Shown here one piece after another: positions 308 to 26,227 of a stretch of 58,288 nt of DNA; the first letter of the stretch is position 1, and each line of letters begins with the position of its first letter. The stretch lies in contig JBAZOJ010000002.1 of assembly GCA_041648755.1 (NCBI GenBank), positions 1 to 58,288 of the forward strand. Direction: 5' to 3'. The translations under genes were made by a program, and so were the position numbers. Under the pieces are notes generated by a model. The model ran no database searches. It saw nothing but the letters and a program-made list of their open reading frames with translations, and was not told where the DNA came from. This DNA is from Candidatus Brocadiia bacterium. Lineage in GTDB: Bacteria; Planctomycetota; B143-G9.

Positions 308-3300
308 ATGTTCAGGAACCTTTTCGTCGGATCGCTGCTTTTCCTTGCCGCTTTACTGTGCTTCTCGCCGTACGCGAAGGCTGGCGCTTCTGACTTCAAC
401 GAGAACTGGGACAGCGGATACAGCTACGGTCAGATGATGACCTCTTCGAGTACACCATGGTCTTTCTCATGTCCATCCGGAGTCTGCGGCTGTTCTTACG
501 CGGGAAGCGTTGACGGCTACAACTACAGTTCCTCTCAACTGGCGGGTCACATGGGTTGCCCGTATGGAAACTACTCCGGCTGGGGTGGCTATTACGACTG
601 GTACATGAGCCGCACTTGGTCGAATCCGACTTTTGCCCCCGGGACGCTCAAGTTCTGGTACTACTTGAGCGACGCCAGTCTCGACATCCAATACACGCCG
701 GATGGCTATAACTGGTACATAGCAGCCTATATCTACAGCTATCCGACGTATGATTACGGTTCAACCACGTCGGTCAGCATTCCGTCTGGCACCTTGGGAA
801 TTCGTTTCCACACTTACTGCTACTCTTACGCGTACTACTACGGCGCCTGGATCGACGACATCAAGTTCACAGTTCCCTGGGTGGAAATAGCTTCCATCAC
901 CGGTTACAACGCGACCGACATCAACGCGGGCATCCTGAATCTCACAGCGACTACGACCACCGTTTTTACAGGCGTGGACAAGGTCGAGTGGCAGTACAAG
1001 AAGAGCACCGACACGCTGTGGAGCGCGACGACGACTGATAACACTCCTGTGAACGGGTTCACCTATACGTTGGACACGGGGACCATTACCGACAGCTCAT
1101 TCCAAGTTCGGGCGCGGGCTTACGATGACGGCAACTATGGAGATTGGTTCATCGCCGTAATCCAGGTGCAGAACCTCGGTTCGGTGACATTGACTCCTCC
1201 CAGTCCGACTGGAGGGGACACAATAATGACTCTGTCGTACACTCGACAGTTGGTCGACGCATGGTTCCCCGCGAACAAGTGGGTGCATTCGAGCTTCTAC
1301 TGCAGCAGCAGCTATTACTGGACCGTTGACGTGGCTAATCCGATTCCCTACAGCGGTACGGCTACAAAGGTGCAGTCGAACTTCTACCAGACCTTCACCG
1401 AATACAACGGTTGCTCCAACTACAATTCGTGGAAGCTGAAGCTGTTTTCCGGTTCGGGCGGCAGTTTCACCGAAGTGGCAACGTCCCAGTCGATAAACGC
1501 GGAAAGCGGCTTGAAGGAGTATGATCTGTCCGGCTCTACATTCACGAACCTGGCCAAGAACCTGTTGCTCGGCCAGGAAGCAGGATATTGGGCATGTTAC
1601 AACGCAGGCAATTGGTCCGGCGGCAATTCGCAGAACTGCTGGTACAAGTACTATACCAGTTCGGGTTGGTCCGGGCCCTACACATACTACATTGTGCCTT
1701 TGCGCATCAAGATGAAGAGCTATGGCTCCGACATCGATCAGGTGTCATTCCAGTATTCCGCCGACGGCAGCCCTTGGGTTTCCCTTGGCAACAACCAGAT
1801 CGTAAAGGTCTCCGGTCAGGACAAGTACACAATCAACTGGGCCTCCTGGGCAGTTGACAGCAGCAACGTCAGTTTCAGGGTCCGCCTGCACTACGGGCCA
1901 GTGTGGAGCGGGACGTATACCTTTGGACCGTATCCAGTGCGCAACAGGATTGACCTGACCTACAACATCGCGAAGAGCCCCAGCGCGCCCGGGAGTTTCA
2001 CACCGGTTGCGGGCACGCAGTTGACGATAGGCTCCACGGCCACGACGGTTCCCTATTCCACGAATACAGGCTACTACGGGACATTCACGATTTCCGCCCC
2101 GCAATACATCATGGATGTGGGCGGAACTCAGTGGCGATTTGACTACTGGAGCGATGGCGGCGGGATAACCCACGAAATGCAGGTCCTGCCGAAGATGACC
2201 GGGACAATTACAGCCTTCTATGCGAGACAGGTCTACTTCGCAGTGGACTCAATTGTCAGCAATTACGTGGCGCCCCCGGCGGGGTACTACGAGCCCGGAA
2301 CCTTGATTCAGATACAGGTTCCGCAGTACAGCAACGTGGATTCTGTCACGAGATACCGCTACGTGTCGATGGACATTCCCTCGATCAGCATAAACACGAC
2401 CGAGACATGGTACAGCTTCAATCTGCCAGCCAGAACGATTGTGACCCTGAACTGGCAGTTGGAGTACTACTTCACGGTTCAGAACGACAAGGGAGTCGGC
2501 ACCGGCACCGCAAACGGGTGGTACTCTGACGGTGCTACCGTCAGCTACTCCGTGGCGCAGACCCTTGACAATGGCACAGGCGCGCGGTTTGACAACCGCG
2601 GGTACAACATCAACAGCGCGTTCGGCGCCGCAAGCCGCAGCTATACTGGTACGCTCACACAGCCGATAACGATCCAGTGGATCTGGCAGCAGCAATATAA
2701 CGTGGTAGTTTCGAGCAACGTCGGCACGACCACACCGGCGTCGGGCTGGTATGATGCGGGAACGGTGCTCAGCTTGAACTCCATAGTACCGGGCAGCACA
2801 TCCACGGTGTCGATGACGTTCAACGGCTGGGCGGGCAGCGGAACGGGGTCGGTCACGACAAGTGGCGGAAGCCCGGCCGTTCCGATAACCGTGAACGGAT
2901 ACATTACCGAGGTCGGAACCTGGACGGTATCGTTCAAACTCGACCTCATCGCTGTTAACGGACTCGGTTCGTTCTCGCCGGATGCCACAGGCTGGTACCC
3001 GGCCGGCACGATGGTCACGATAAACATAGTATCTCCGACTTCACCGACCGGTTCACGTTACGTACCGCAGTGGATAGGCGAAGGCAACGGAGCATTTTCC
3101 TCAATCGCGGCACCTGATGTACCGGTGTCCGTGACGGTGAAGATGGACAACCCGATCAAGGAATCAGTGCAGTGGCACCTGCAGCACTCACTGACGATCG
3201 AGAACCCTGATGGCTACGGGACGCAGAACCCGGCCGCAGGCGTTTACTGGCACATGAACGGTGATAAGATAAGTGGCGTGTGCCAATACATCGTCGGCAG

Positions 3301-4711
3301 CAAGATGTGCGACGGGTACTACGGCACCGGCTCGATAACCAACGGCACTAAGCCGTACTTCTCGGGCTTCATCACAGCGCCGACGCTGGTTCGGTGGGCC
3401 TGGAGGGACAGGCCGACCGCTGGCGATCAAAGTTGGAACACGTCGGAACTCATCATCAACATCGACACTCCTTCCCAGATGTCTGCCTCCCGCGACACAG
3501 CGGGTCATCCTGTAGTTGCTTATTACGACAAGACCTATCACGCGATCAAGATCGCAGTCAAGGACGAAAGCGGTTGGACCGTCAGCACATTCCGCGAGAA
3601 CGTCTCTTACCTCAACTGGCTGGACCTGTATGTTGACACCGCGAACAACCCCCATATCACCTGCTACGCAGTACAGGACAGGATTCTCCGTTATTACGGA
3701 GCGTTCGAGACGGTAAAGGTGGAGTTCTCGCCGGTGACACCGGACGTCATCCAGACAGTGGGCGATTCCGGTCGCAATCCGCACATTGCCGTCAACACGA
3801 TGGGCGATGTCTTTATCTCGTTCTACGACATGGCAGAGAACGCGCTAAAGGTTGTCTCGCGCATGCACGATTCGAGCGACTGGTCAGCGGAAACGGTGGA
3901 TTCCGAAGGTAACCCTGGAATGTTCAACGCTATCGCAATTCGTGAAATAGACGGGATGCCAGTCATTGCCTACCACTCGCTGACTCTCCGCAGGCTCATG
4001 TATGCCGAGAGCAGCGAAGGCGGATGGGTGCTGAGCATTGTTGACGACGATGGTGCACAGGGCTTCTACCCCTCGCTGGCCTTGTCTCCGGACGGCACTC
4101 CTATGATCGCATACCAGGACGTTACTGACAGCAACAAGATGCACCTGAAGTTCGCAACCCGCGTTGGCGATCAGTGGAGCACCGCGCTTGTCGATTCAAC
4201 GGATCGCTGCGGTTTCAACACCTCAATCGTTGCCGATGAGAACGGGGTCATCCATATCGGTCACCACGACGAGCACAACTTGAGATATGCTCGTTTTAAT
4301 GGTTCAGCCTGGGAAACCATGGCTCTCGGTGGAACGAACGTAGTTGGAAACACTGCGGTCGTGCTGGGAACGAACGGCTATCCGCAGCTTGTCTACCTCG
4401 ATGGAGGGAAGATCACCACGATTTCCGCGAAGAGTAGCACCGGGAGTGGCGGAGATGGCGGAGATGGCGGCGACGGCGGGACAACACCGACAACCAGCGG
4501 AGGCGGCGGATGCTTTGTGGCAACGGCTGCCTTTGGCTCGCTTGCAGCCTCTGAAGTCAACGCACTGACTTCTTGCAGAGATGCCGTGGTTGCTGGTTCA
4601 GAATCCGGCGCGGCCCTCGTAAGAGCCTATTACACCGTAGCCCCGAGCGCTGCGGACTCAATCCGCGCAAACGGCGCAATCAAGGCCTTCGTAAGAAGCC
4701 TGCTCGATTAG
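308..4711 (+). CDS. Large secreted surface protein, paralog 1 (1467 aa): signal peptide, two Tyr-rich variable domains, divergent InlB-B/Flg_new-like repeats, beta-propeller, Gly/Asp linker, CFI-box-CTERM-like tail
   Basis: ATG at 308 after AAGGGGTG; signal peptide MFRNLFVGSLLFLAALLCFSPYAKA; repeats GYYEPGT/GWYSDGA/GWYDAGT/GWYPAGT; PxIAYxD propeller blades; ends TTSGGGGCFVATAAFGS...FVRSLLD. Confidence 0.85.
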   Translation: MFRNLFVGSLLFLAALLCFSPYAKAGASDFNENWDSGYSYGQMMTSSSTPWSFSCPSGVCGCSYAGSVDGYNYSSSQLAGHMGCPYGNYSGWGGYYDWYMSRTWSNPTFAPGTLKFWYYLSDASLDIQYTPDGYNWYIAAYIYSYPTYDYGSTTSVSIPSGTLGIRFHTYCYSYAYYYGAWIDDIKFTVPWVEIASITGYNATDINAGILNLTATTTTVFTGVDKVEWQYKKSTDTLWSATTTDNTPVNGFTYTLDTGTITDSSFQVRARAYDDGNYGDWFIAVIQVQNLGSVTLTPPSPTGGDTIMTLSYTRQLVDAWFPANKWVHSSFYCSSSYYWTVDVANPIPYSGTATKVQSNFYQTFTEYNGCSNYNSWKLKLFSGSGGSFTEVATSQSINAESGLKEYDLSGSTFTNLAKNLLLGQEAGYWACYNAGNWSGGNSQNCWYKYYTSSGWSGPYTYYIVPLRIKMKSYGSDIDQVSFQYSADGSPWVSLGNNQIVKVSGQDKYTINWASWAVDSSNVSFRVRLHYGPVWSGTYTFGPYPVRNRIDLTYNIAKSPSAPGSFTPVAGTQLTIGSTATTVPYSTNTGYYGTFTISAPQYIMDVGGTQWRFDYWSDGGGITHEMQVLPKMTGTITAFYARQVYFAVDSIVSNYVAPPAGYYEPGTLIQIQVPQYSNVDSVTRYRYVSMDIPSISINTTETWYSFNLPARTIVTLNWQLEYYFTVQNDKGVGTGTANGWYSDGATVSYSVAQTLDNGTGARFDNRGYNINSAFGAASRSYTGTLTQPITIQWIWQQQYNVVVSSNVGTTTPASGWYDAGTVLSLNSIVPGSTSTVSMTFNGWAGSGTGSVTTSGGSPAVPITVNGYITEVGTWTVSFKLDLIAVNGLGSFSPDATGWYPAGTMVTINIVSPTSPTGSRYVPQWIGEGNGAFSSIAAPDVPVSVTVKMDNPIKESVQWHLQHSLTIENPDGYGTQNPAAGVYWHMNGDKISGVCQYIVGSKMCDGYYGTGSITNGTKPYFSGFITAPTLVRWAWRDRPTAGDQSWNTSELIINIDTPSQMSASRDTAGHPVVAYYDKTYHAIKIAVKDESGWTVSTFRENVSYLNWLDLYVDTANNPHITCYAVQDRILRYYGAFETVKVEFSPVTPDVIQTVGDSGRNPHIAVNTMGDVFISFYDMAENALKVVSRMHDSSDWSAETVDSEGNPGMFNAIAIREIDGMPVIAYHSLTLRRLMYAESSEGGWVLSIVDDDGAQGFYPSLALSPDGTPMIAYQDVTDSNKMHLKFATRVGDQWSTALVDSTDRCGFNTSIVADENGVIHIGHHDEHNLRYARFNGSAWETMALGGTNVVGNTAVVLGTNGYPQLVYLDGGKITTISAKSSTGSGGDGGDGGDGGTTPTTSGGGGCFVATAAFGSLAASEVNALTSCRDAVVAGSESGAALVRAYYTVAPSAADSIRANGAIKAFVRSLLD
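4448..4480 (+). repeat. Low-complexity Gly-Gly-Asp repeat linker (9-bp unit); similar linkers at ~9121-9155 and ~13820-13858
   Basis: GGCGGAGATGGCGGAGATGGCGGCGACGGCGGG encoding GGDGGDGGDGG. Confidence 0.7.
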
Positions 4712-23190: not shown

Positions 23191-23218
23191 TTGACTTTCA
23201 GCCCTGTGCGGGTATACT
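23191..23218 (+). promoter_or_regulatory. sigma70-type promoter driving the structured leader and porin 1
   Basis: TTGACT-16 bp-TATACT. Confidence 0.75.
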
Positions 23219-23254
23219 ATCGCATTTTGTGCGCTCTTTTGACAAGCAGCTATT

Positions 23255-23480
23255 CCGCGGAAGGACCAATCAGGCCCAGCGGTGATTCGGGAAGCGGCCC
23301 AGATCCCGTAACGCGTGTAAAGCGCGAACGGGTGCGGCTTGGTGCACCGAGTCATACCTGCGGAGTTCGACGCCGTGATTTGACGGCGCCAGCTCCGTAT
23401 AGGTCGCCACAACGGCAGCCAGCGGCCTGAGTCCGTGAAGGGAGGTGAACTCAGCGAACCGGGGAGTAGTAGCAATAGAA
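23255..23480 (+). ncRNA. Unassigned highly structured RNA (multi-stem junction) in the 5' leader of porin 1
   Basis: Closing stem GGAC/TCAGGCC (23263-23276) with GGCCTGA/GTCC (23424-23434); internal stems CCCGT..ACGGG with a GTAA tetraloop, GCTTGG-TGCA-CCGAGT, ACCT-CGGAGTT..AGCTCCG-AGGT enclosing CGCCGT/ACGGCG, GCC-ACAAC-GGC. Confidence 0.55.
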
Positions 23481-23529
23481 CGTGAACCACTTTCAAGCTT
23501 CTGTGTTACAAAAAAGGAGTCTTAACGAA

Positions 23530-24801
23530 ATGAACCGTATTCTTGCAATCGTCACCGCTTTCGTACTCGTGCTGGGAATGGCCTCTACGGCCCAAGCATC
23601 CGGCACTGATGTTACGGTTGGCGCTGACATCACAGTCCTTGGTACCTACACAGACAACTACGACTTCACCGATGCCAACAAGGATGCTATTTCGTCGCTC
23701 AACGAGTACGTGCACCTCTACATCGACAACTTCTACACCGAAAAGGTGTCGACCCACATCGAACTGTCCCTCGCTTACTACGTTACTGACAAGGACAATG
23801 TTAGCGTTGAACTCGCTCAGGGCTACATCAAGGTTGAAGAGTTCCTGGACAAGAGCATCAACCTGAAGGTTGGTAAGATGAGCGTAAAGTGGCAGCTCCG
23901 CCCGACATGGGGCGCTGGCACCTTCGAGAACATCTATCCTTACGGCATGAACAGCGCATTCGTCATCAACGTCAATGCCCCTGGCTTCAGCTTTGAGTAC
24001 AGCTTCAATGAGAACGTCGCGCTGACCTTGGCTTGGTACAAGCTCCTTGAGGGCTCCGTCGCCGGCGACAATGCCAACGACATCGACCTCTATCTCGTTC
24101 GCTTGGACTACAAGCTTCAGCAGAACAGCAAGTTCTTCGCGGCCTTCTTGTTCTACGATGACCAGTGGGACAAGACCCAGATCAACAAGACCCTCATCGG
24201 CAATATGTGGGTTTTGAACGCTGGTATCGATTACTTCATTCAGGACGAGGCTCTCGAACTGTACGCTGAGTTCGCCTATCAGGCTGGCACCACTTATCCT
24301 GGACAGGCTGACCTCGGCTCCGTCGCGTTCAACCTGGGCGCTGAGTACACCTTCGGTGATCAGCAGTCCACTCCGTACATCGGCCTCGATGTCACCTATT
24401 TCCAGGGCCAGAAGACTGGTACCCCGGGAACGGCTGCATACAATCATTTCGGCGCCGATTTCACCCGTACCCTCATCGCTGAGAACGACAGCAACGTCCT
24501 CTTTGATCCCGCTGTTGTTCCTGGTTGGATGGGCGTCAAGCTGGTGGGCGGCATGAAGAGCGTTATGGACGACAAGATCGCCCTCGACTTCATCTTTGCC
24601 TGGTTCAGTGCTAATGGTGATATGCCCGGCGGCGCTGGCAAGGGACTCGGCTATGAGTTCGATGCCGTCGCTTCCTATCTGTACACAGAAGACCTGGTCT
24701 TCTCGCTGGGCTTCGGCTACTTCAAGGCTGACAAGGACCTCGGCGGCGCAACCACCGACGGCACTTGGCTGGCCATCCTTTCCTGCACGATCACCTTCTA
24801 A
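23530..24801 (+). CDS. Outer-membrane beta-barrel, alginate-export (AlgE)-like family, copy 1; probably highly expressed
   Basis: ATG 23530 after AAGGAG; signal peptide ending AQA; amphipathic strands, GKGLGYEFD, C-terminal Phe (CTITF); strong C-ending codon bias. Confidence 0.75.
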   Translation: MNRILAIVTAFVLVLGMASTAQASGTDVTVGADITVLGTYTDNYDFTDANKDAISSLNEYVHLYIDNFYTEKVSTHIELSLAYYVTDKDNVSVELAQGYIKVEEFLDKSINLKVGKMSVKWQLRPTWGAGTFENIYPYGMNSAFVINVNAPGFSFEYSFNENVALTLAWYKLLEGSVAGDNANDIDLYLVRLDYKLQQNSKFFAAFLFYDDQWDKTQINKTLIGNMWVLNAGIDYFIQDEALELYAEFAYQAGTTYPGQADLGSVAFNLGAEYTFGDQQSTPYIGLDVTYFQGQKTGTPGTAAYNHFGADFTRTLIAENDSNVLFDPAVVPGWMGVKLVGGMKSVMDDKIALDFIFAWFSANGDMPGGAGKGLGYEFDAVASYLYTEDLVFSLGFGYFKADKDLGGATTDGTWLAILSCTITF

Positions 24802-24823: not shown

Positions 24824-24857
24824 AAAACCGCGCCGGGAAACCGGCGCGGTTTTTTTT
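24824..24857 (+). terminator. Strong rho-independent terminator
   Basis: AAAACCGCGCCGG-GAAA-CCGGCGCGGTTTT plus T tract. Confidence 0.9.
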
Positions 24858-24988
24858 CGGCAAAAAGTGAACCTGGCTGGGGGATAAGCGAATATAGCGC
24901 AGCGCGAAAGGAAGTGTAACCAAACGCGCGTTTCTTCGTTAAGTCTGTGGAACGCGGGCGGTGGCCTGCTGTGAGAAAGGAAACGACG

Positions 24989-26227
24989 ATGAGGAGAGTT
25001 CTTTTGACTGGATTGATTGTGTTTTCCGTTGCAGCCGTGCTCTGCACGACGTGGAGAACGGCCTGCGCTGCGGGGACGGAAGTTGCTGTTGGTGCGGAGA
25101 TCTACATCAAGTCGGCCTATCAGAACAATGCTGACTTCGACGACAACGCCAAGGATGATGTCGCTTTCACCGTCGAAGAAGTCACGTTGATCATCAAGAA
25201 CAAGTTCACCGAAGAAGTCAGCACTACGCTTGAAATGGAAGCTGCCGTGATCGATTCGGCAAATGGGGCCGTCGAGATGAAGTACGCCTACATTGATGTG
25301 GGCCACTTCTTCACCGAGAATCTGAAGATCAGGATCGGCAAGATCGGCTCGAAGTGGGAACTCAGGAAGAACTACGGCGTGCCGAATGCGTGCAGGGTCT
25401 GCGACTTCGACCTGTCGCTTTTCCCTGACACGAAACCTCTCGGAATCCTGGCCGAGTATGTGTCCGGCGACATTACGGTGAACCTCCTTCGGGGCCAGTA
25501 CCTCGAAGGTTCCGTTGTCGGCAATAACGCCAATGACATCGACGAGTACCTGCTGAGAGTGGAGTACAACACCGGGAAGGGCTACGTGAACGGGTACTTG
25601 CTCTACTGGAATGACAACAACAGCGCTACGCCCATCGACTACTTCACCATCGGTTTTGCCGGTCGGCATGCCGTGGTTGAGGGCAAGATGGGACTGTGGG
25701 CCGACATATCCTACCAGACGGGCAACTCAACCGTTGCCACAGATGAGTTCGGCGCCCTTCGCGCTTGGGTTGGCACGGAAGTTGTCTTCGAATCTGAGAC
25801 AAAACCAATGGTCGGCCTCGACCTGTTCTACTTGCAGGGCGCGAGCGGGAACACCAAGGCCTACACTCAGATCAAGCATGACTTCGACCGCACGCTGATT
25901 GTCGAATCGACCAATTGGATCGGCTTCCTGCCACGGGCCAATCAAGGCTATACAAGCGTACAGGGGCTCGCGGGCCTGCAGAGCATCTTTAAGGGCAAGT
26001 GCGAGGTAATGCTCACGTTCACCTATTTCACCGCCAACGGTGACCTGCCCGCAGGCCAAGGCAAGGGCATAGGAACCGAAGTTGATGGCATCTTCGTGTA
26101 CAACTACATGGAGAACCTGTCCTTCGTTCTCGGAGTGGCCTGGTTTACCCCGGACAAGGACTTTGCCGGAGCCTCGAATCCGGACCCGACAGTGTTGGCG
26201 ATCTTCAACGCCTATCTCGAGTTCTAA
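24989..26227 (+). CDS. Outer-membrane beta-barrel, copy 2 (paralog of 23530-24801)
   Basis: Shared motifs GTEVAVGAEI, NNANDIDEY, DFDRTLIVE, GKGIGTEVD; signal peptide; C-terminal Phe (YLEF). Confidence 0.75.
   Translation: MRRVLLTGLIVFSVAAVLCTTWRTACAAGTEVAVGAEIYIKSAYQNNADFDDNAKDDVAFTVEEVTLIIKNKFTEEVSTTLEMEAAVIDSANGAVEMKYAYIDVGHFFTENLKIRIGKIGSKWELRKNYGVPNACRVCDFDLSLFPDTKPLGILAEYVSGDITVNLLRGQYLEGSVVGNNANDIDEYLLRVEYNTGKGYVNGYLLYWNDNNSATPIDYFTIGFAGRHAVVEGKMGLWADISYQTGNSTVATDEFGALRAWVGTEVVFESETKPMVGLDLFYLQGASGNTKAYTQIKHDFDRTLIVESTNWIGFLPRANQGYTSVQGLAGLQSIFKGKCEVMLTFTYFTANGDLPAGQGKGIGTEVDGIFVYNYMENLSFVLGVAWFTPDKDFAGASNPDPTVLAIFNAYLEF

Follow-up and report, generated by a model that had tools for sequence, protein, structure and literature searches.

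A structured RNA domain with a strand complementary to the 16S rRNA 3' end in the 5' leader of a porin-like outer-membrane protein gene family of Candidatus Brocadiia

We describe a structured RNA domain of about 220 nt within the 5' leader of a gene for a porin-like outer-membrane protein (OMP) of a Candidatus Brocadiia bacterium. The domain occupies positions 23250-23469 of the window, by which we mean the whole 58,288-nt stretch of DNA that was analysed (contig JBAZOJ010000002.1 of assembly GCA_041648755.1, forward strand). An earlier note, made from the sequence alone, had suggested that the leader contains a structured RNA of unknown class, and this is supported by the lack of any Rfam match, by a folding advantage over shuffled sequence and by covariation among homologs. 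Because the domain carries a near-invariant 12-nt complement to the 3' end of 16S rRNA, we favour, at a probability of roughly 0.4, a role as a cis-acting, ribosome-docking leader that stabilises the OMP mRNA.

The promoter that had been noticed about 310 nt before the ATG is of the sigma-70 type and lies 312 nt from the ATG at 23530 (Table 1), with a predicted transcription start at ~23225. Near-consensus promoters also occur 25-45 nt 5' of P0, the outermost helix of the domain, in the homologous leaders G003c2, G002b, L297 and L305. A hairpin predicted at the very 5' end of the mRNA, in whose place the homologs have other hairpins, may serve to protect that end. The OMP itself gives a weak domain match to Alginate_exp and belongs to a multi-copy paralog family. 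A second paralog, 36% identical to the first, lies immediately beyond the first gene's terminator (24947-26227); its short leader of ~190 nt is without the structured element, and the protein tree groups it with a leaderless gene of the genome G001.

Table 1. Positions of the promoter, the RNA elements of the leader and the OMP gene in the window
Feature	Position	Strand	Description
Sigma-70-type promoter	23191-23218	+	TTGACT, 16-nt spacer, TATACT; 10/12 consensus matches
5'-proximal hairpin (predicted)	23221-23233	+	CGCA-UUUUG-UGCG, at the predicted mRNA 5' end
P0, 5' strand	23250-23260	+	CUAUUCC-G-CGG; pairs with 23459-23469; compensatory changes in 10 homologs
P1, 5' strand	23263-23266	+	GGAC
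P2, 5' strand	23270-23276	+	UCAGGCC
Core arm	23286-23351	+	P3 23286-23290/23347-23351; P4 23297-23299/23336-23338; P5 hairpin 23305-23332
P6, long arm	23356-23404	+	ACCU...AGGU with nested hairpin
P7 hairpin	23406-23416	+	GCC-ACAAC-GGC
P2, 3' strand, and P1, 3' strand	23424-23434	+	GGCCUGA, then GUCC
Purine strand	23437-23448	+	GAAGGGAGGUGA; near-invariant, family consensus GAARGGWGGUGA; 2-3 nt after P1
P0, 3' strand	23459-23469	+	CCG-G-GGAGUAG; recovered in full-leader MFE fold
AUAGA block	23475-23479	+	conserved in the alignment; just after P0
Pyrimidine-rich box	23487-23502	+	CCACUUUC...GCUUCU
Ribosome-binding site	23514-23519	+	AAGGAG
Start codon	23530-23532	+	ATG, then signal peptide MNRILAIVTAFVLVLGMASTAQA
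Porin-like outer-membrane beta-barrel protein	23530-24801	+	423 aa; signal peptide; C-terminal Phe
Intrinsic terminator (read from sequence)	24828-24857	+	CCGCGCCGG-GAAA-CCGGCGCGG, then eight U

From outside to inside, the domain consists of P0, a short 5' joiner, the 4-bp helix P1, an A-rich 5' bulge, P2 and a junction with three arms, namely the conserved P3-P4-P5 arm, the long and variable P6 and the small hairpin P7. The bulge between P1 and P2 reads CAA in the window and GACAnACA in most homologs. The sequence of P2 is wholly different between clades with its complementarity kept, and in many members a further helix, P2b, lies beyond it. Within the core arm, P3 (UUCGG with CCGAG) is found in all homologs and P4 pairs GCC with GGC, which makes UUGGUGCA a conserved internal loop. 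The internal loops of this arm (GRAAGG, AAGAU, GUG, UUGUGCA) are near-invariant and the loop of P5 is purine-rich. The base of P6 covaries (A-U, G-U, G-C) and its terminal hairpin differs in sequence in every clade; where P7 lies, members of the window's subgroup and several further homologs have a short hairpin. Measured from P1, the purine strand ends after 179-198 nt in every member. Downstream of P0, the AUAGA block may begin another hairpin. Between P0 and P1 (window 23252-23262), the joiner frequently contains the palindrome CCGCGG, as in the window, L288, L294 and L304.

Much of what had been folded by eye in the earlier note survives comparison with homologs: its outer helix (GGAC/GTCC plus TCAGGCC/GGCCTGA) corresponds to P1 and P2, its hairpin CCGT-CGCG-loop-CGCG-ACGG to P5, its nested arm ACCT...AGGT to P6 and its GCC-ACAAC-GGC hairpin to P7. 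Two further arms that it proposed, GATTCGGG/CCCAGATC and GCTTGG-TGCA-CCGAGT, are complementary in the window sequence and present in its MFE fold, but the homologs pair P3 and P4 instead, and the TA-GCAA-TA tetraloop is not conserved. The closed junction seen at 23263-23434 is indeed folded, but the domain extends further, with P0 enclosing both the junction and the purine-rich strand; and the purine-rich tail is present as described, its complementarity to 16S rRNA having gone unrecognised. Some additional features were considered and discarded. A pseudoknot in which GUGCACC pairs with GGUG of the purine strand is uncompensated in G002a and L305 and overlaps P3; a K-turn in the P4/P5 internal loop was rejected by inspection, as its 3' strand is without the required G-A pairs; and what looked like a second conserved purine block 12-20 nt past the purine strand is actually the 3' strand of P0. 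No conserved hairpin was found within the 12-20-nt linker that follows the purine strand.

Several lines of statistical evidence support this fold. Compared with shuffled sequences, the region 23263-23434 has a z-score of -5.2 and the region 23221-23529 one of -3.8, with none of the shuffles folding as well. Covariation is abundant across the ~16 distinct homologous sequences. After RNAalifold gave a first view of P3 and P4, a six-sequence alignment of the core showed 83% of cells paired and 12 of 17 pairs changed on both sides, neither of which was reached by any of 500 shuffles. An unguided MAFFT alignment of 16 sequences has 86% of cells paired vs 68% in shuffles, with compensatory changes in 24 of 30 pairs, and when the partner strand is slid by 1-3 columns the pairing falls to 27-49%. 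For the individual helices, the paired cells amount to 97% for P1 (with both-side changes in three of its four pairs), 99% for P3 and 94% for P4, and for P6 and P7 the support comes from the window's subgroup. Independent MFE folds recover the same architecture in 14 of 15 homologs; the window's own MFE fold mis-pairs the core arm, and forcing the consensus fold costs 1.5 kcal/mol. The 5' strand of P0 stops 3-7 nt short of P1 in the homologs; each P0 helix is short when taken alone, but the best-helix score summed over ten leaders reaches 64, and none of 1000 shuffles exceeds 60. The P0 pairs are CUAUUCC/GGAGUAG in the window and L284, ACUAUCCU/AGGGAUAGU in L305, CUACCC/GGGUAG in L304, ACUAUCCG/CGGAUAGU in G002a, CUG(A)CCCUU/AAGGGCAG in G003c2, GCCUC/GAGGC in G003c3 and CUGCUC/GAGCAG in G002b.

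No Rfam 15 family matches the domain at the gathering score, the sole match in the window being a tRNA elsewhere, and at E<=10 the segment 23100-23650 gives chance matches of 11-14 bits, all of them outside the domain. The source genome is a MAG of 383 contigs, which was compared with three other genomes of its family. The same leader, with its conserved blocks, precedes five more OMP paralogs in the sister genomes G003 and G002, and a 73-position covariance model of the core (R1) finds these six copies and no others in the family genomes. From 20 close homologs of the OMP we obtained 23 public contigs, and in every one of them R1 matches upstream of the OMP gene with 30-79 bits. The 30 matches obtained in total amount to ~16 distinct sequences; they come from public contigs (JGI, Logan and one NCBI genome) and from three genomes belonging to a single uncultivated family. 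A search at the DNA level with the leader in 40 relatives found nothing, as did a protein-pattern search of assembled genome contigs. Among 400 genomes of the phylum R1 gave nothing credible: there were two marginal matches at E about 0.003-0.004, close to chance, of which the full-length one (G235) falls within coding sequence in a high-GC genome and the other (G169, E about 0.004) is partial. A scan of public metagenome and genome contigs with the pattern TGCGGN{2,5}GTGCN{68,98}GAARGGWGGT returned ~200 loci, all attributable to chance, the pattern being too loose. Leaderless paralogs and distant OMP homologs, searched with filters off, gave no R1 match above 12 bits. Among the sequences searched, the element is thus exclusive to this OMP gene family.

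In the protein tree the leader-bearing genes all fall into a core OMP group, and among them branch two genes without the leader, G003c4 and G003C9; we therefore conclude that the leader travelled with the gene duplications and was lost at least twice. One locus of G003 (L024, contig C10, 6163-11500, minus strand) has three tandem OMP genes, each with its own promoter and leader copy and separated by gaps of ~525 nt, and a fourth OMP copy at 1356-2627 of the same locus, ~65 nt after an ABC-ATPase gene, has lost the leader. At L025 (contig C9 of G003, 1460-1602) an OMP gene follows aspS, in synteny with the window, and has a ~130-nt leader without the element; the syntenic OMP gene of L305 (GCA_053987155.1) retains it. 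The leader G002b, of ~455 nt, has an intact core, and the OMP gene behind it (L027, contig C21 of G002, 2787-4083, minus strand) is apparently broken, with two TGA and one TAA inside the match, so that it is either a pseudogene or an assembly error.

Except at its R and W positions and for a few isolated changes, the purine strand GAARGGWGGUGA is conserved in all homologs, and P0 and P1 close the large asymmetric internal loop that contains it. The only complete 16S rRNA gene of the family, in the sister genome G002, has a 3' end that reads GAUCACCUCCUUUCU and ends in ...GGAUCACCUCCUUUCUAAGG; over 12 nt, GAAAGGAGGUGA is complementary to the 16S tail UCACCUCCUUUC at every position. Where the strand varies between A and G, the facing 16S base is U, so that the duplex is kept through a G-U pair. 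In the G003 clade the strand reads GGUGG, and its duplex with CCUCC has a central U-U mismatch. Across the leaders the strand lies 80-300 nt upstream of the true start codon and ~65-300 nt upstream of the true ribosome-binding site. In partition-function folds of ten full leaders, the strand has a mean unpaired probability of 0.56 vs a leader average of 0.40. For the true Shine-Dalgarno sequence a mostly paired state is predicted, with an unpaired probability of 0.16-0.27 in five of the ten leaders, and in the window the predicted values are 0.73 for the strand and 0.27 for the true Shine-Dalgarno; thermodynamic predictions of accessibility are weak evidence. In the 3.75-Mb genome the 12-mer has three copies, about as many as chance would give. 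Its copies on contigs C208 and C27 have no flanking similarity, read like coding sequence and were rejected as further elements. A GGAAGGAGGTGA copy on contig C187 was also dismissed, yet it is followed by GGGATAG, as in the tail of the L288 group, and stands 37 nt from the contig end, so that it could still be a truncated element.

According to the reading that we favour, the folded scaffold would present the purine strand as a docking, or standby, site for the 30S subunit. Protection of the long untranslated leader from RNase E/G would come from the parked 30S and the compact 5' structure combined, and the parked subunit would also feed ribosomes to the partly base-paired true ribosome-binding site downstream. 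The net effect would be an OMP mRNA that is both long-lived and heavily translated. Some properties of the domain sit uneasily with such a role. Near-invariant loop nucleotides in P3-P5 are needless for a plain stabiliser and suggest a specific partner, be it a ligand or a protein; access of the 30S to a strand held in a loop between two helices might be hindered; and the predicted central U-U mismatch in the G003 clade would count against docking there.

The stabilising of an mRNA by bound 30S subunits has precedents. The stabilising Shine-Dalgarno sequence (STAB-SD) is found bare, close to a processed 5' end, in a Gram-positive organism and is thought to act against a 5'-3' exonuclease; the strand described here is embedded in a large conserved fold. 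RNase E/G is present in the genomes of the family, and no match for RNase J was found in G000, G002 and G003 (the last being 98% complete), so that the classical STAB-SD mechanism is inapplicable as such. In Bacillus thuringiensis cry3Aa, the STAB-SD is described as GAAAGGAGG, located ~125 nt before the start codon and without a start codon of its own, and it is thought there to bind 30S and prolong the life of the mRNA (Agaisse & Lereclus 1996, as presented in PMC12970973 and PMC7509114). The element in the window likewise has a far-upstream Shine-Dalgarno-like complement of 16S rRNA without its own ORF.

The 5' UTR of E. coli ompA, 133 nt long and made of simple stem-loops, has no sequence or structural similarity to the element. 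Like the element, it is a long structured leader of the mRNA of a major OMP with a hairpin at its 5' end, and both the RNase E/G and a predicted 5' hairpin are found in our case too. The strong, protective Shine-Dalgarno of ompA is its real ribosome-binding site, whereas the strand of the element is a separate upstream copy. Ribosome binding to the ompA leader is described as protecting the mRNA from RNase E independently of translation (Emory/Belasco and Arnold et al., as presented in PMC7509114), and stabilisation of an mRNA by 30S binding without translation is thus on record for both STAB-SD and the ompA 5' UTR (PMC12970973, PMC7509114).

Among published elements, the SLH motif comes nearest; it was put forward as a riboswitch candidate (Stav et al. 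2019, BMC Microbiol 19:66, PMC6429828), with Thermovirga lienii NC_016148.1/613490-613841 as type example. Its description gives 80 examples from Synergistaceae, Clostridia and Negativicutes, ~60% of them upstream of SLH-domain proteins, and leaves the function unexplained (PMC6429828). Like the element, it is an uncharacterised, conserved structured leader of major envelope or OMP genes in diderm bacteria; the downstream OMP and its paralog have no SLH domain. We compared the two by proxy, using the SLH-domain OMP loci of two Negativicutes genomes (16 loci, 14 upstream leaders). In L313, L317, L321, L323 and L324, five of the 14 leaders, an RGGAGGUG block complementary to the 16S tail precedes the ATG by ~85-320 nt. 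In L313, the one leader traced, the block lies in a hairpin loop, much as the strand of the element lies in a loop closed by helices; there the block comes first and is followed by ~170 nt of leader, whereas in the element a 175-nt junction domain precedes the strand. The 16 loci gave no Rfam match and, with filters off, no R1 score above 9 bits, and an nhmmer HMM built from the element alignment found the purine block and nothing else in the 14 leaders (E 0.5-9). Judging from these proxy leaders, the SLH motif would share a principle with the element, with no detectable likeness in sequence or structure, and the comparison neither shows nor excludes homology. In three Lucifera leaders a CAAAUAGAAC block resembles GCAAUAGAAC of the window (23472-23481), which could be convergence or distant homology.

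A less probable reading, though one to be taken seriously, is that the domain is a riboswitch or a protein-binding operator, in which the P3-P5 arm and the junction form a pocket for a ligand or protein. Binding would then set whether the purine strand captures the pyrimidine-rich box, in an anti-anti-Shine-Dalgarno arrangement that opens or closes the true ribosome-binding site. The fold is complex and aptamer-like, the junction and loop nucleotides have stayed near-invariant while the helices turned over, and the length of the domain is tightly constrained; the conservation of the P3-P5 loops is better explained in this way than by docking. Pyrimidine-rich boxes lie 36-43 nt before the ATG in five of 14 leaders and are in several of them complementary to the strand, so that such a box could pair alternatively with the strand or with the true Shine-Dalgarno, which in predicted folds is held within small local hairpins. 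The analogous SLH motif, moreover, was proposed as a riboswitch candidate by its authors (PMC6429828). However, the element serves a single gene family with no link to a metabolic pathway, the box cannot be aligned across clades and no covariation was found for either of its pairings, and there is neither a terminator nor a clear switching helix. For a strand that does no more than compete for the box, an exact 12-nt match to 16S rRNA would also be an odd coincidence.

It is improbable that a tiny upstream ORF or start-stop element uses the strand as its ribosome-binding site and, through its translation or the arrest of ribosomes on it, regulates the OMP gene. Start-stop mini-frames do occur 6-7 nt past the strand (AUG-CCA-UAA, GUG-UCG-UAA, GUG-UUG-UAG, GUG-ACG-UAA and GUG-GAG-CCG-UAG), all of them in one clade (G003c1, G003c2, G003c3, L297, L305), and L294 has an upstream ORF of 26 codons that ends just before the ATG. 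However, no start codon lies within reach of the strand in the window, L283/L284, the L288 group, L304, G002a or G002b, and because so many members are without one, an upstream ORF is excluded as the conserved function. For the docking of 30S subunits that we favour, the mini-frames are in keeping with real ribosome binding at the strand.

The public contigs bear on the form of the transcript. Of the 23, 19 are 1.50-1.61 kb long, start 0-26 nt upstream of P1 without ever reaching the -10 box, and end 12-29 nt past the stop codon, before the terminator hairpin, with leader and coding sequence continuous; the other four (L297, L300, L301, L305) extend into neighbouring DNA. From their sequence, these 19 contigs would be assemblies of an abundant, ~1.6-kb monocistronic mRNA that carries leader and coding sequence. 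Bases 1-8 of L287 (TCCGATCT) resemble an Illumina adapter tail in the Logan assembly, which puts its true 5' end 8 nt further in. The earlier note had also allowed for an independent ncRNA; a stable trans-acting small RNA, cut out or terminated from the leader and serving for example as a decoy that binds the 16S tail or an RNA-binding protein, would fit the compact fold closed by P0 and the clustering of contig 5' ends near P0 and P1, but it is very unlikely, because no terminator separates the domain from the OMP gene and 19 transcript-like contigs run in one piece from the domain to the stop codon, and the element was never found away from an OMP gene in the genomes and contigs searched.

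With a docking role in mind, one may speculate further, although we hold this to be doubtful, that the domain is a dedicated docking scaffold. According to this speculation, the 16S tail would pair over 12 nt between P0 and P1 while the P3-P5 arm contacts the platform of the 30S subunit, making the leader a bacterial counterpart of internal ribosome entry, or a 'ribosome-gated' element. Together with the SLH motif of Negativicutes and Synergistetes, it would then point to a general strategy of diderm bacteria, evolved independently, for stabilising the mRNAs of their most abundant OMPs and loading them with ribosomes.

Structured leaders of envelope mRNAs are known from a few models, such as ompA, S-layer genes and STAB-SD, and these have a simple architecture. 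The element described here is large, built around a junction and conserved to a degree otherwise seen in riboswitches, and its best-conserved single-stranded part is an anti-Shine-Dalgarno complement situated far from the start codon. It adds a compact and well-defined member, from an uncultivated lineage, to the catalogues of RNA families. If a ligand is sensed by the domain, it would be a new class of riboswitch controlling porin synthesis. If instead the strand docks the 30S subunit, the leader would provide a clean natural system for standby binding and ribosome-mediated protection of mRNA, and it would offer a testable function for the unexplained SLH motif.
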